Part shown: positions 34,711 to 46,645 of the stretch, piece by piece
Layout: every line of letters begins with the position of its first letter
Position numbering within the stretch: position 1 is the stretch's first letter
Origin: a virus
Lineage: Duplodnaviria > Caudoviricetes
DNA length: 47,025 bases
Strand: one strand, 5' to 3'
IMG/VR virus record: IMGVR_UViG_3300030376_003142
Span: 1-47,025 of that record
Translations under genes and position numbers: made by a program
Notes under the pieces: generated by a model
What the model saw: only the letters and a program-made list of their open reading frames with translations
Database searches by the model: none
Told to the model about the DNA's origin: nothing

Positions 34711-34942
34711 GGGTGTGATTGTTCATTCCAGTACAGGTACACGATTCAACTATCCTTTGAGGATTGTTGTTTCTAAATTGTGACTTATCACAATTAGGTG
34801 TGTACTTTGATATGTGACTCCATTCTGCATTGTATTTACATGCTCTGTAAATGACCTTCTCACAATGGAATCCATGGTCAGATACTTTATGAGCATGAAC
34901 TGGTATTGGTGTTAGTGCTAACACTAACAAGAGAAGTTTCAT
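34670..34942 (-). CDS. Hypothetical protein with signal-peptide-like N-terminus
   Basis: MKLLLLVLALTPIPVHA followed by a Cys/His-rich region; coupled to its neighbours. Confidence 0.5.
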   Translation of the reverse strand: MKLLLLVLALTPIPVHAHKVSDHGFHCEKVIYRACKYNAEWSHISKYTPNCDKSQFRNNNPQRIVESCTCTGMNNHTHDYLTEPLANKTK

Positions 34943-35391
34943 GGCAATTTGGGGAGTTCAACTCCATTATAGTGCATGAGCATATAGATTGTCCATAATG
35001 CTCGTATTTCAAATTCATGGTAATATTCGTCATCAATTACAATAGTAGGTAAATATTCGTCTTGACTTGGTGCTATAAGTAAAACCTTCGTGTTTATTTG
35101 TTCTAATACTTTTACTAGGTGTGAGTTCGTTCTGCATGTAATAGCAATAATAAGATCAGCAGTATGCTCGGCATAATCTATCCATGGTTCCTTCCAATCG
35201 TGGTCACCACCTAATGCTGTTAGGTTTACACTATCAGGTGCAAAGCAGAATTTATCAGTATGACGGTATATGTCACTTGCCATGTGTTGAGCAATAGCAA
35301 GATTACCACCAGTACCTATGAGTGCTATTTTGTTTGCTGCTGCAAACAATTTCACTCCTTCTTCAAATCCTATTGGTTCTGTAAAGACCAT
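34939..35391 (-). CDS. SIS-domain phosphosugar isomerase (GmhA-like)
   Basis: KIALIGTGGNLAIAQHMASD resembles GmhA GNGGSAADAQH; LTALGGD; DLIIAIT; HEFE. Confidence 0.7.
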   Translation of the reverse strand: MVFTEPIGFEEGVKLFAAANKIALIGTGGNLAIAQHMASDIYRHTDKFCFAPDSVNLTALGGDHDWKEPWIDYAEHTADLIIAITCRTNSHLVKVLEQINTKVLLIAPSQDEYLPTIVIDDEYYHEFEIRALWTIYMLMHYNGVELPKLP

Positions 35392-36080
35392 TCTACTTCT
35401 TTTATGTGATGCAGTCTATCAACTGCTCTTATTTTACCACACTTTAGATCGTATGGCATTACATCATATTTACCACAGAAACCTATTGTATCTAATCCCT
35501 TCCAATACTTTACAAATGTCATGTCAAGATTAGGAAAGTCTCTTATTGCTTTTATTGAGTACAAATACAATCCTAATTGAACAGTTATATTATTACATAT
35601 TACGTCAGGTTTACGTTGCATGTGAACAACCTTCCCATTATTTTCAATCATCTTCACTACATCATCATCCTCAATTTCACCATCCTCTAATTTTCTTGAA
35701 CTCTGCACCACATCATATTCATTGTCAATTCCATACTCAATCATTTGGTCTATCCACTCAGGTTTGGTGAGTGGTTCATCACCCTGTAAATTGAATATGT
35801 AATCTGATTTCATATATTGTGACACCTCTGCAACTCTATGAGTACAGGTGTAGTGTTCACTTGTGATGTATGCAGGGATACCATTAGAGTCTGCTAATTT
35901 AGCAATAGAATCATCTGGAGTGGCAACCATTACCATGTCAAGGTGTTTGGACTCTTTTGCTATATCAGCAACCCTAAGAACCATTTCTCGACCATTGATC
36001 TTAGCAAGAGGTTTGTTTGGAAACCTACTAGAAGACAATCTTGATGGAATGATACATGTGACAATTTTATTTTTGTACAT
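35370..36080 (-). CDS. kdsB: CMP-KDO synthetase-like cytidylyltransferase
   Basis: IIPSRLSSSRFPNKPLAKING..MV.RV...VATPD..I...T...H...T.RVAEV...NLQGDEP...VKM...GLYLY...AVD. Confidence 0.85.
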   Translation of the reverse strand: MYKNKIVTCIIPSRLSSSRFPNKPLAKINGREMVLRVADIAKESKHLDMVMVATPDDSIAKLADSNGIPAYITSEHYTCTHRVAEVSQYMKSDYIFNLQGDEPLTKPEWIDQMIEYGIDNEYDVVQSSRKLEDGEIEDDDVVKMIENNGKVVHMQRKPDVICNNITVQLGLYLYSIKAIRDFPNLDMTFVKYWKGLDTIGFCGKYDVMPYDLKCGKIRAVDRLHHIKEVEWSLQNQ

Positions 36081-39305: not shown

Positions 39306-39357
39306 ACAAAGTGGCACAAGATCACTTGAGTTTTCTTACCAAATCAACTATTATACT
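39297..39357 (+). promoter_or_regulatory. Early-promoter element, copy 2
   Basis: CACCAGTTCACAAAGTGGCACA, then TATTAT/TATACT at 39349-39357. Confidence 0.72.
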
Positions 39358-39379: not shown

Positions 39380-40519
39380 ATGCCTAGAACCATTGACGGA
39401 TCAGTCCACATCAATAGATTGAAAGATTCTTATGGAGTCAACATTGATGCAGAGATCGTAAAAGAGTATTGTCAGAACCATGAAGAGATAGGTTACCAGA
39501 CACTTACTAAGTATCTGAACCAGTATAAAATCAAACGTGGTCATTGGAGATTGACTATGGATGAAATGGTCAAGGAGTCCAAACTATCACCAGATCAACT
39601 AAGGTCAGGAGAAAGACCACAGATTCAGTTTGTTCAGAAAGAAGAGCAAAATCTAGTTCCTTCTAAGGATGATACATTTGTTCCCTTTGGTGGATTTACT
39701 GATGTCAAGAAGGTTCTAAGATCTAACCAATTCTATCCTGTATTCATTACTGGACTATCTGGCAATGGTAAGACATTTGGAGTTGAGCAAGCATGTTCAC
39801 AACTAGGTAGAGAACTCATTAGAGTAAACATTACAGTTGAGACTGATGAGGATGATCTAATCGGTGGATTTAGATTAGTAAATGGTGAGACTGTTTGGCA
39901 TAATGGTCCAGTAATTGAAGCACTTGAAAGAGGATCTATCTTACTACTAGATGAAATTGATCTAGCAAGTAATAAGATATTATGCTTACAATCTATCCTT
40001 GAAGGTAAGGGAGTATTCCTCAAAAAGATAGGACAATTTGTTAGACCTAAGGATGGTTTCAATATTGTAGCAACTGCTAACACTAAAGGCAAGGGATCTG
40101 ATGATGGTAGATTCATAGGTACTAACGTATTGAATGAAGCATTTCTTGAAAGGTTCCCAATTACATTTGAACAGAACTATCCTTCACCAGTTACAGAGAA
40201 TAAGATCCTTAGAAAGATCTGCGATCAACTCAATATACCTATGACTGGTGACCATGAGAAATTCATTGTTCATCTAGTAGACTGGGCAGAAATAGTAAGA
40301 AAGACCTTCAATGAAGGTGGAATTGATGAGGTTATCTCAACTAGGAGATTAGTACACATCATAAGAGCATATTCAATATTTGGTGATAAACTCAAAGCGG
40401 TCAAAATATGCTTGAACCGATTTGATGATGAAACCAAAGAGTCATTCCTTCAATTATACACTAAGTTAGATGACTCAGTTGAGATAGATGCTCAAATCAC
40501 TCCAGAGGATGCTAAATAA
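39380..40519 (+). CDS. cobS: CobS-like MoxR AAA+ ATPase
   Basis: FITGLSGNGKT (Walker A), ETDEDDLIGG, LLLDEID (Walker B), ATANTKGKGSDDGRFIGTNVLNEAFLERF, ISTRRL. Confidence 0.93.
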   Translation: MPRTIDGSVHINRLKDSYGVNIDAEIVKEYCQNHEEIGYQTLTKYLNQYKIKRGHWRLTMDEMVKESKLSPDQLRSGERPQIQFVQKEEQNLVPSKDDTFVPFGGFTDVKKVLRSNQFYPVFITGLSGNGKTFGVEQACSQLGRELIRVNITVETDEDDLIGGFRLVNGETVWHNGPVIEALERGSILLLDEIDLASNKILCLQSILEGKGVFLKKIGQFVRPKDGFNIVATANTKGKGSDDGRFIGTNVLNEAFLERFPITFEQNYPSPVTENKILRKICDQLNIPMTGDHEKFIVHLVDWAEIVRKTFNEGGIDEVISTRRLVHIIRAYSIFGDKLKAVKICLNRFDDETKESFLQLYTKLDDSVEIDAQITPEDAK

Positions 40520-40542: not shown

Positions 40543-40737
40543 ATGTTTGATTCTGCTACCGATTATAGTGACCTCATTGATGATAATGAGGTCTATTATA
40601 CCGAGAATGAATATAGGTTCAAAAAAAGGCAACTGGATCACCTCAGACTTGCAGATAAATTTTATCTGTGTGACAGTCTACAAAGTGTCACAAGAACCAT
40701 TTACATGAGGTCTGGATCTGTTATAATATGTTTATAG
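40543..40737 (+). CDS. Small hypothetical protein
   Basis: Preceded by GCTAAATA (40511); its 3' half overlaps promoter element copy 3. Confidence 0.35.
   Translation: MFDSATDYSDLIDDNEVYYTENEYRFKKRQLDHLRLADKFYLCDSLQSVTRTIYMRSGSVIICL
40669..40727 (+). promoter_or_regulatory. Early-promoter element, copy 3 (upstream of the structured RNA)
   Basis: TGTGACAGTCTACAAAGTGTCACA; TTTACA -35-like box; TGT-TATAAT at 40722. Confidence 0.8.
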
Positions 40738-41180
40738 GCAGAAAAGGATGCCGATCCCTGAGACTGAGTTAGTACCTGTAATTAGACTCATAATGAGTTA
40801 GGATCAGGTGAAGCACCTCTTGACCAGTCAGACATCTCGGATCAGTTTCGTAAGACCTATAGTTTCAAGGGATATGTGGTTCTACTGCCCCAAACCTTCT
40901 AACTACCCTGACATAGAAGCAGGGATATGATGTTAGAAGAAACCTATTACTGCACAGTCAGATGGTTGAAAGTGGTGGGGGTTCAGGTGTAAGCGATTCC
41001 CAGTAGGTAAATTTGGGCATATAGGTGAAACCTTGCAGATGCCCCACTCCCTTGAAACTCCCCAATTATGAACGAGGAAAGGCGAATGTGCCTCGTAGGT
41101 CGCAACTACTAAAAGACATCCAGATCTAATTCAACTCCTGTCGTATGAGTATAAACTAGGCATGTTCCCTTACATAATGT
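40735..41180 (+). ncRNA. Large structured non-coding RNA candidate or structured leader
   Basis: About 450 nt with no ORF in the track, GC-enriched, many stems, including the perfect 12-bp AGTTTCAAGGGA (40861-72)/TCCCTTGAAACT (41048-59), CTTCTAAC/GTTAGAAG, CCCTG/CAGGG, GGGCAT/ATGCCC around an AGGT-GAA-ACCT hairpin, ACGAGG/CCTCGT and AGGTG/CACCT. Confidence 0.7.
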
Positions 41181-41190
41181 AATCACCACT

Positions 41191-41415
41191 ATGGCAAAAA
41201 TCCAAGGATCTAGTGCTATCGCTGCTGTCAACTTTGGCGAGAATAATGCAGTTGAGGTGCAATTCCAAGGCAATGAAAAACTTTATGGTTTTGTTGCAAA
41301 GGATTCATCACAACTTCGCAATGACTTACAGTCAACTCTCGAAAGAAATGAGTCTGTAGGAAGTCTCATTGCAGGTTATCGCAGAAGTGGTAAACTAAAT
41401 GCAGTTGAAGCATAG
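41191..41415 (+). CDS. Small KTSC-like protein
   Basis: SSAIAAVNF...VEVQF.G.EKLYGF...ESVGSLI resembles the KTSC pattern SS.I..V.Y....L.V.F..G..Y.Y...S.G. Confidence 0.6.
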   Translation: MAKIQGSSAIAAVNFGENNAVEVQFQGNEKLYGFVAKDSSQLRNDLQSTLERNESVGSLIAGYRRSGKLNAVEA

Positions 41416-41463: not shown

Positions 41464-41494
41464 GACCCCGATTGAGTCGGGGTCTTCTACTTTC
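41464..41494 (+). terminator. Rho-independent terminator candidate
   Basis: GACCCCGA-TTGAG-TCGGGGTC followed by TTCTACTTTC. Confidence 0.6.
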
Positions 41495-41874: not shown

Positions 41875-42426
41875 ATGTCCACTAATCAAATACTTGCAGA
41901 GCATGTAGAAAATTACATCACCCATGATGATGCAATACATGGTAGACTTGAAGATCCCTATGCAGACTCACCCTTCAAGATCTATAGGGAAATGAGTTCA
42001 AAGACCAAAGGAAAGTATTTTGAAGCATTTGTTGAAGAGTATTGTGAGAATTTAGGATGGAAGGTTGAGAGAGCAAAGAAAACCACTGAATATGATAGAG
42101 TAGTCAACAATTATAAGGTTGAGGTAAAAGGATCTACTGTATGGTCAGGTAGTAAACCACATTTTAGATGGCAACAAATCAGACCAGAGCATTGTTATGA
42201 TATAATGGTATTTGTTGCAGTATATCCTGATAGAATGGAGTTCTATTCATGTACTAAGGAAGAGATCGTGGATTATGTTACTAACCAAAATTGGTTGAAT
42301 CAGCATGGTGGTAAGACTAAGAACAGTGGCACATTTTTTATTGATGGTTTCCCTGAGGACTTCCCATTTTTCAAAACATTATTCACTCACTTAGAAGGAT
42401 TCAAAGGAACTAGGAATGAAGAGTAA
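41875..42426 (+). CDS. Type II restriction endonuclease, MseI-like PD-(D/E)XK
   Basis: EDPYADSPF...SKTKG..FE...YDRVVNNYKVEVKGSTVW...FRWQQIR...YD...NQHGG; PD-(D/E)XK core (D..EVK); matches recalled R.MseI motifs; adjacent to an MTase. Confidence 0.75.
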   Translation: MSTNQILAEHVENYITHDDAIHGRLEDPYADSPFKIYREMSSKTKGKYFEAFVEEYCENLGWKVERAKKTTEYDRVVNNYKVEVKGSTVWSGSKPHFRWQQIRPEHCYDIMVFVAVYPDRMEFYSCTKEEIVDYVTNQNWLNQHGGKTKNSGTFFIDGFPEDFPFFKTLFTHLEGFKGTRNEE

Positions 42427-43192
42427 ATTTGTAAATAAAGACTGTCTTGCTTTTCTAAAGACAGTCAAGGACAACTCAGTGGATCTAGTTTTGACTGATC
42501 CACCATATAATATATCATTTGATGGTGGCAAGGGTTGGGATAGTCAATGGAAGAGTGAGAGAGACTATCTAAAATGGTGTGATACATGGACTAAGGAATT
42601 AGTTAGAGTTCTCAAACCTAATCGTATGATGATAGTCTGGGGTACTCTCAAGACTGATACATTTATAAAGTATAAACTCTTGTTGGGTTTATACGATCAG
42701 TTAGTATCTCAGAATGAGATAGTATGGTCATACAACTGGGGTGGTCGTGCCAAGAATAATTTTGCTCGTAAGCATGAATACGCATGGTGTTACTCTAAGG
42801 GTGATGATTTCTTATTCAATGATGATGACATCAGAATTGAACGTAAACTCAAAAAGAATATAAGAACAGGCAAGGACTACACTCAGGGAACTATACCTAC
42901 TTGCGTCTGGGAGATCAATAATCATACTACCAGTAAGGACTATATTGGATGGCATCCTACTACTAAGAACCTTGAGGTATTAGAAAGAATGATTAGAGCA
43001 TATTCTAATGAGGGTGATGTAGTCCTTGATATTTTTATGGGTAGTGGATCTACTGGAGTAGCATGTAATCGTACTCGTAGGATATACTTAGGATGTGAGA
43101 AGTCTCGTGAATATTATCGTAAAGCAAAGGAGAGAATAGCAAATGATCGTGACAGTTTAGAAAGTGTCCCTAATTTGCTTACAGAACTCTAA
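42416..43192 (+). CDS. Beta-class amino-methyltransferase (m6A/m4C)
   Basis: DLVLTDPPY (motif IV) N-terminal to HPT.K...SNEGDVVLDIFMGSGSTG (motif I); overlaps the nuclease gene by 11 nt. Confidence 0.93.
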   Translation: MKSKFVNKDCLAFLKTVKDNSVDLVLTDPPYNISFDGGKGWDSQWKSERDYLKWCDTWTKELVRVLKPNRMMIVWGTLKTDTFIKYKLLLGLYDQLVSQNEIVWSYNWGGRAKNNFARKHEYAWCYSKGDDFLFNDDDIRIERKLKKNIRTGKDYTQGTIPTCVWEINNHTTSKDYIGWHPTTKNLEVLERMIRAYSNEGDVVLDIFMGSGSTGVACNRTRRIYLGCEKSREYYRKAKERIANDRDSLESVPNLLTEL

Positions 43193-45672: not shown

Positions 45673-45731
45673 GTGACAGTCTATAAACTGGCACAAGAAC
45701 CCTTTCAATTTGCCCCATTTGTGCCTATAAT
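45673..45731 (+). promoter_or_regulatory. Early-promoter element, copy 7
   Basis: GTGACAGTCTATAAACTGGCACA; TATAAT at 45726. Confidence 0.78.
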
Positions 45732-46586: not shown

Positions 46587-46645
46587 TGTGACAGTCGTCA
46601 AAGTGTCCACATTTCCCCCTATTACCCCTGATAACCCCTTATAAT
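46587..46645 (+). promoter_or_regulatory. Early-promoter element, copy 8
   Basis: TGTGACAGTCGTCAAAGTGTCCAC; TATAAT at 46640. Confidence 0.75.

Follow-up and report, generated by a model that had tools for sequence, protein, structure and literature searches.

The locus described here places structured RNA at the head of a predicted early phage transcript, an arrangement familiar from the put RNAs of HK022 and from 5′ stabiliser stem-loops. These are single designs with one cis function, and we know of no nesting or exchange among them. In marine T4-like cyanophages, covarying structured RNAs in the 5′ regions of genes are represented by manA (RF01745) and wcaG (RF01761), both proposed as riboswitch candidates in the available text of Weinberg et al. 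(2010, PMC2864571). Among large RNAs, the accessible portion of Kretsch et al. (10.1101/2024.12.08.627333) presents ROOL as phage-borne, OLE as displaying protein-binding pockets, and covariation between palindromes as the signature of cross-chain pairs in OLE and GOLLD. The PeSL cassettes of T4-type phages are described in the available text of Comeau et al. (2014, PMC4122927) as repeated composite terminator/promoter sequences that move genes.

The locus examined here lies in a 47,025-nt stretch of DNA (the window), a fragment of a T4-like cyanophage record from a Prochlorococcus-type T4-like phage. The original prediction was of one multi-domain structured RNA behind its own early promoter, with a possible switch and with manA or wcaG possibly accounting for part of it. 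The structured leader RNA held up, the single fold and the manA/wcaG explanation did not, and the switch found no support. The interval is almost certainly a modular array in which some eight RNA folds, each conserved separately, follow or enclose one another.

The gene-free interval and its early promoter

As had been claimed, positions 40738-41190 form the longest stretch of the window without a credible gene: just two ORFs, of 40 aa each, lie within it, and the runner-up gene-free gaps measure 142, 136 and 122 nt. The interval is also GC-richer than its flanks, as noted originally, its GC content of 0.44, where the whole window has 0.37, placing it in the top 0.4% among 446-nt windows. Long baseplate-/tail-type genes occupy the left part of the window, and small early-type ORFs lie to the right of a cobS-like AAA ATPase gene (39380..40519, + strand; PHROG 249, E 7e-131) that is outside the RNA. 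This gene is the constant upstream neighbour of the slot, a matching gene end being present upstream of the arrays in three further loci (L668-L670). The interval is flanked by a 64-aa ORF that overlaps the promoter and by the 74-aa gene that heads the transcript (41191..41415, + strand; phrog_4357, E 1e-8), for which there was no Pfam hit and KTSC is a lead only (score 0.77, 19% of that cluster). Sequence scans found an intrinsic-terminator-like hairpin after this gene (41464..41484, + strand) and, in the leader, no terminator between the RNA array and the gene. Just upstream of the early block, on the − strand at 34939-36080, are what we take to be sugar-isomerase-like and cytidylyltransferase-like genes. 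At 41875-43192, directly behind the next early promoter, a phrog_6927 gene (183 aa) overlaps an N6/N4 DNA methylase gene, an arrangement that resembles a nuclease-methylase pair.

The early promoter of the original prediction was recovered. It spans 40682..40727 (+ strand) and comprises an upstream AAAGTGTCACA element, an extended −10 TG-T-TATAAT (40722-27) and, 16 nt upstream of this, a −35 TTTACA (40700-05), for 11 of 12 consensus matches, a match that is weak on its own because the whole scan gave 8 sites where 5.3 were expected. The predicted transcription start is at about 40733-34; one metatranscriptome contig starts at 40734, in weak agreement, and the outer stem begins at the same distance from the −10 hexamer in 58 of 120 homologous B contexts (module B is described below). 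The interval is predicted to be the 5′ leader of an early transcript. More early-type promoters with the same upstream AAA(G/C)TG element and short leaders lie at 39308-39354, 45685-45731 and 46600-46645, and none of the other early-type promoters of the window has a long structured leader. Upstream of module B in five homologous loci (L012, L016, L017, L019 and L020) we noted a G-run, then AAAGTGT, then TATAGT or TAAGGT; this G-run/AAAGTGT motif stands directly before the first stem in many leaders and possibly marks another promoter class.

Part of the stretch is present in 20 of the 21 metatranscriptome runs listed, from 11 studies, and the leader is covered in all four RNA runs examined (three samples, three studies), by contigs from which strand, ends and level are unreadable and for which DNA carry-over is uncontrolled. 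Contigs of two studies end just before the terminator at 41464, and two runs span it, a pattern that carries no information on read-through. The contigs also carry a natural variant of module H with four compensatory pairs and several joints with other architectures; their summed depth peaks over module B, a depth that pools many phages and hence gives no expression level.

RNA modules and their covariation

The minimum free energy of the interval was uninformative on both strands (z −1.26 and −1.37), 12 of 100 shuffles folding as well in the case of z −1.26; because the sequence alone folds no better than shuffles, the case for structure rests on homologues. Thirteen phage records matched the interval, none over 80% of the query. 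Meaningful matches came from P-SSM2 and P-SSM5, with 4 records, and from single-cell marine viruses, of which there were five; the other four were short chance matches. In P-SSM2 a block matching the middle of the interval precedes a block matching its start. Because no record covers 80% and parts are reordered and nested in relatives, the interval is not conserved as one whole RNA, contrary to the single multi-domain RNA originally proposed.

Homologues were collected by pattern scans of IMG/VR, module by module, which gave at least 121 loci for module B (~190 estimated), 75 for module A (3 of them chance matches in genes), 51 for module F, and 30 and 122 loci for module E in two pattern scans (119 of the 122 true). 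Strong compensatory change was found in A, B, F, G/H and E, with 93-99% of cells paired and 0 of 500 shuffles reaching the observed values, although covariation counts are not independent events because the homologues are related. Across these modules stems vary and covary and loops are fixed, an invariance that is inflated for A, F and E because the search patterns fixed parts of each loop. The covariation among homologues supports a conserved structured RNA on the + strand behind the early promoter, without an Rfam family.

In the window the architecture is [K[F[A[I]]]]-[B[H,G]]-E-V-AUG, all modules being on the + strand. Support is weak for the outermost wrapper, K (40733..40861), in which TATAGG-C pairs with G-TAAGA-CCTATA around a 5-nt bulge: 51 of 94 instances have a partner of at least 6 bp, against a shuffled mean of 38.7 and a maximum of 49 in 200, and the stem competes with the GGCA/TGCC pairing of the original prediction, a possible hairpin. 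Wrapper F (40751..40840) has a CCGA/TCGG stem, an invariant UCC / ACAUC internal loop and CU-GA-GA / UCAG, and is 96.8% paired in 29 rows, with double changes at 6 of 11 pairs (0 of 500 shuffles). In the window it encloses wrapper A (40764..40827), two stems around an AGU / GAAGCACCUCUU internal loop, which is 93.3% paired in 24 rows with double changes at 10 of 15 pairs (again 0 of 500 shuffles). Module A in turn encloses hairpin I (40779..40804), the ACTCA/TGAGT stem of the original prediction, as read from the alignments. Hairpin I is a common insert of A (24 instances inside A), and related forms occur directly inside F. This part of the array also holds the one lead toward an antisense RNA against a host transcript, a reading to which we give almost no credence. 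In 33 of 151 genomes, a Prochlorococcus transporter-like mRNA (presumably for an NRAMP-like transporter) contains a stretch complementary to the 18-mer at 40771-88 with no more than one mismatch, but at an E-value of 0.05 the match is probably chance. Within A and I the bases of the 18-mer are engaged in pairing, phage variants alter its sequence and keep the stem, and there is no significant rRNA match (best p 0.19).

Module B (40861..41059), identified by pattern scan, covariation and a model hit, is a wrapper that forms a three-way junction. Its bulged P1 (40861-79/41044-59) contains the perfect 12-bp helix 40861-72/41048-59 with GTGG/CCAC that had been predicted, and this helix covaries among homologues. 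P2 is the predicted long-range CTACTG/CAGTAG pair, which also covaries and is nested rather than a pseudoknot; among the B matches listed, 108 of the 110 arm pairs that could be parsed form it perfectly (of 117 pairs, 7 lacked a parsed left arm), with 7 variants and inserts of 9-226 nt. P3 (CCCC/GGGG) holds the insert, a conserved bulge lies at 40981-41000, and P4 (41016-43) ends in the cap GGUGAAACC. In an alignment of 33 short-insert copies, picked for alignability, 97.4% of cells are paired and 14 of 31 pairs show double changes (0 of 500 shuffles reach this), and shifting the partners lowers pairing to 28-58%. RNAalifold recovers the same fold, and a B covariance model scores the window copy at 113.9 bits. 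One-sided changes in B are mostly to G-U, which indicates that the RNA is the + strand. The bulge core AGGTG(T/C)AAGCGATTC is kept in 110 of 110 true B copies from an independent pattern. A pairing of the bulge start with the P4 loop was considered and rejected, since 18 of 110 copies have a change to A or G at this base and an unchanged partner.

Inside B lie H (40896..40939), a wrapper that is empty here, and the bulged hairpin G (40941..40967), which follows H and was identified by covariation. H consists of the predicted CTTCTAAC/GTTAGAAG helix with nested CCCTG/CAGGG around a UA / AUAUGAU loop; both helices covary, and the loop AC-AU-AGAAG is an insertion site in relatives. H and G together are 94.4% paired, with double changes at 12 of 22 pairs in just 13 rows; G alone has double changes at 4 of 9 pairs and is broken in 2 rows without G.

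Every motif quoted in the original prediction is readable in the sequence, and its interval, promoter and central helices stood, whereas the switch and several flanking stems found no support. The switch, or pseudoknot, was to have arisen from competition in the central domain. Here the GGGCA/TGCCC stem covaries, but the competing CCCAAA/TTTGGG shows no double change and is broken in 4 of 33 rows, those where the competing P4 stem changes; five of its base pairs are still possible in most B copies, and a switch by this pairing is unsupported. The GGTGAAACC hairpin, taken for a GNRA type, is better read as a U-A-closed triloop of the T-loop type, a label based on the T-loop consensus; RNAalifold pairs U-A around GAA. 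Among the proposed flanking stems, GATCC/GGATC is 54% paired in homologues and GAGACTGA/TCAGTTTC, assessed at 6 of its 8 pairs, 39%; the two halves of GACCTA/TAGGTC lie in modules that are rarely found together; and AGGTG/CACCT, most of which was fixed by the search pattern, shows no double change. ACGAGG/CCTCGT persists in homologues as a 4-bp GAGG/CCTC stem and not over its full 6 bp.

That 4-bp stem belongs to module E (41074..41121), a divergent copy in the window, which also has a GTAG/CTAC hairpin and is 99.0% paired with double changes at 6 of 17 pairs. The hairpin covaries; covariation is no proof of the first stem and the pseudoknot, because these are nearly invariant. The likely pseudoknot, GAATGT/ACATCC, has one mismatch in the window copy and is perfect in homologues; this 3′-end element, absent from the original prediction, is the only likely pseudoknot of the interval. 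HDV-like ribozymes are laid out as a nested double pseudoknot with P3/L3. As a candidate for this class E was rejected, since there is just a single base between its pseudoknot strand and its closing strand, which leaves no room for P3/L3. Module V (41127..41173) is a conserved tail with an ACTC/GAGT stem and a compensatory variant in L064/L262. It was seen only ahead of the phrog_4357 gene family, in 3 of 5 lineages (the window, L262 and L669), and not in L668 or L670; V could be a cis site for the phrog_4357 protein. A 9-bp alternative pairing between E and V is present in the window lineage only.

Directly after E lies the self-complementary hexamer AGATCT (41122..41127), a predicted dimer site. 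The six bases after the last helix of E are self-complementary in 117 of 119 homologues (GCTAGC 57, CACGTG 21, CCTAGG 16, CTATAG 15, CCATGG 7, TCTAGA 1), and each of the other two has a 7-base palindrome centred on a T; to these the window copy and L183 (AGTACT) can be added. All three palindrome pairs covary, and the two neighbouring bases at the centre occur as UA, AU or CG. Folding predicts no hairpin here, and duplexes of −3.8 to −8.2 kcal/mol. A hexamer that is variable yet self-complementary points to RNA-RNA dimerisation, and we infer that the RNA may form a homodimer through it; alternatively, the palindrome could fold into a very short hairpin or serve as a site at the DNA level. Palindromic hexamers are typical six-base restriction sites, and host restriction could drive the switching among them.

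At gathering score, the Rfam 15 models (riboswitches, ribozymes, T-box, sRNAs) gave 0 matches in the window; the best sub-threshold overlap with the interval was Ocean-VII, at 12.9 bits versus 53.5, and no credible match was found in 20 homologous loci and 9 further loci. manA had no match in the window at 55.2 bits, with a positive control elsewhere in P-SSM2 at 181.6 bits. For wcaG the best window score was 19.9 bits, at 11.7 kb, against a threshold of 42, with none in the interval, in a search that had no positive control among 5 records. A scan for tRNA and tmRNA found none. The B core had no exact match in 185,579 cellular genomes, the B model reached at best E 0.17 in 5 cyanobacterial genomes, and rRNA mimicry or pairing was rejected after 13 segments compared with one Prochlorococcus rRNA operon gave none below p 0.19. 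Literature found by search, including cyanophage genome papers and the accessible part of a 2026 genome-model-mining preprint, does not describe the modules. Eight supplementary files of Weinberg 2010 (PMC2864571) hold no match, although alignment gaps can hide motifs, and neither do the readable tables of PMC10690425 (Fremin 2023; 8,497 DNA-virus candidates) and PMC5737381 (Weinberg 2017); single modules may be listed in the alignments of these two collections.

Nesting, exchange and the downstream gene

With arms paired independently for each module type, 113 wrapper pairs from 116 distinct leaders comprised 52 nested, 61 disjoint and 0 crossing pairs, where crossing would be expected in a third of cases for four arms in random order. 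Nesting works in both directions, with B holding H 17 times and H holding B twice, and module A turns up within F, H, B and N. Altogether, 147 leaders gave 96 architecture strings from ~17 recognisable parts. P-SSM2 has H, C, E and U, B, A, I across two adjacent leaders, once each, H having been read directly in the leader because the loose H pattern gave many chance matches in whole genomes. Module B is single-copy in 4 of 5 genomes, those where the model found it. Further modules were noted in passing. Module S, which follows module A in several leaders, ends in a T-arm-like stem-loop (GGTTCAATTCC) with an acceptor-like closing stem (L004:1700-1860, L053, L011) and is possibly a tRNA mimic. 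Module P, a ~55-nt H-type pseudoknot, often lies directly after B (L060, L046, L020 and others; 23 leaders), and its size and layout recall type III antitoxin or exonuclease-blocking RNAs.

A mechanism suggested by these arrangements is that each closed module folds on its own, so that recombination could drop one module into the variable stem of another or between modules and break neither, and that selection would retain about one copy per module. Parasites of structured RNA also insert into variable loops, B occurs twice on one contig among 80 listed, and invariant cores could be active sites. The modules might therefore be mobile mini-elements at harmless sites or small leader-cutting ribozymes, but this is an improbable reading: there is about one copy per genome, the modules are confined to early leaders, no Rfam ribozyme model matches, and E lacks the HDV-like P3/L3.

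Module content varies independently of the gene that follows. The proteins encoded behind the 98 leaders with a readable ORF fall into 22 clusters, the largest being a merger of two families, and one gene family sits behind many architectures. The slot between cobS and phrog_4357 holds different, unrelated arrays in L668-L670, in which no A, B or E was found on reading. PSSM2_070, which has an array in P-SSM2, has orthologues with just 39-42 nt upstream in S-SSM4, S-PM2 and ACG-2014f (3 of 3 Synechococcus phages inspected). Module V is the exception to this independence, because it was seen only ahead of the phrog_4357 family.

This independence bears on the possibility that the modules are stacked metabolite- or ion-binding aptamers, acting as orphan riboswitches or as sinks for signalling nucleotides. 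The leader does have a conserved aptamer-like fold with covariation, and its compact junctions, conserved bulges and T-loop-like motifs resemble aptamer cores, as would suit phages that also carry the riboswitch candidates manA and wcaG (PMC2864571, available text). We nevertheless consider the aptamer reading improbable, there being no coherent downstream gene function, no terminator in the leader, no covariation for the proposed switch and no Rfam riboswitch match.

The main rival to the reading preferred below is that the modules are cis-acting elements that shield the phage's own early message from decay, boost its translation, or load onto RNA polymerase and suppress pausing and termination in a put-RNA-like manner. 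They always lie between the early promoter and the AUG with no terminator between array and gene, the first stem often begins at the predicted +1, in most homologues 15-23 nt separate the end of E from the start codon, and V precedes only one gene family; the constancy of this position would fit the placement of put-type antiterminators. However, a 5′ hairpin suffices for protection and needs no invariant loops, and a module buried in another adds no obvious barrier. The same genes lack the leader in other cyanophages, neighbouring early promoters lack an array, and many unrelated folds occupy the same slot, a diversity that a cis role explains poorly. We regard a cis function as possible but doubtful.

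Possible functions and comparison with described systems

Our preferred reading, which we hold tentatively, is that the modules are trans-acting binding units (decoy or scaffold) for host or phage macromolecules and not regulators of the following gene. Trans-acting binding units fit because loops are fixed and stems variable, there is about one copy per genome, and turnover is like that of early accessory genes. In that role they would probably serve as decoys during early infection, with the conserved loops and the T-loop-like motifs as putative binding surfaces, and two transcripts are predicted to pair through the palindrome after E, so that every module would be doubled on the complex. 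Counting against the trans reading, the arrays always lie in a leader without a terminator before the gene, as cis elements would, and no host look-alike for decoy mimicry was found in the cellular genomes, the cyanobacterial genomes or the rRNA operon. In a broader and more speculative version, which is rather unlikely to hold in full, Prochlorococcus myoviruses would carry a recursively nested toolkit of at least 15 RNA folds, an RNA counterpart of early host-takeover or anti-defence proteins, with module-specific host targets, assembly into one transcript by recombination, and an array made multivalent by dimerisation through the palindrome. Structure, dimerisation and partners are directly testable because cultured P-SSM2 carries A, I, B, H and E.

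Should the modules work in trans, phage RNA would amount to an accessory arsenal akin to small early proteins; should they work in cis, the arrays would be a naturally occurring collection of stabilisers or translation elements suited to cyanobacteria. In both cases every module is a new candidate fold that already has natural sites for insertion and is usable as an RNA scaffold, and the arrays belong to viruses that infect an abundant photosynthetic bacterium of the sea. Orphan RNAs tend to be discovered singly, fold by fold; here many unrelated folds are interchangeable under a strict nesting grammar. Judged from sequence comparison, the new part appears to be this combinatorial nested architecture, for which literature searches found no precedent; single modules would be of the orphan cyanophage RNA kind.

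Like manA and wcaG, the modules are covarying structured RNAs ahead of marine T4-like cyanophage genes. Unlike those RNAs, which the available text of Weinberg et al. (2010, PMC2864571) presents as single folds tied to metabolic genes, they comprise many folds that can replace one another, in front of small early genes that are unrelated, and in P-SSM2 they lie at 55.8-56.9 kb and manA at 142.8 kb. With OLE and GOLLD, as far as the accessible portion of Kretsch et al. (10.1101/2024.12.08.627333) goes, they share covariation between palindromes at adjacent bases, here after E; in OLE/ROOL/GOLLD-type RNAs, however, the palindrome caps a hairpin, whereas here it follows a pseudoknot helix. OLE, ROOL and GOLLD are also each presented there as one large conserved fold, whereas small folds are recombined in this leader. 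Membership in that type by a whole-length fold was accordingly rejected, no record covering 80% and modules being reordered. The PeSL cassettes of T4-type phages, in the available text of Comeau et al. (2014, PMC4122927), resemble these arrays in their sigma-70-type early promoter, variable regions and shuffling by recombination. The PeSL class, defined by a repeated composite terminator/promoter, was rejected for modules that follow the promoter and are single-copy in P-SSM2. In contrast to PeSLs, which move genes, the shuffled units here are the modules themselves, which come after the promoter, mostly as single copies, and covary as RNA.
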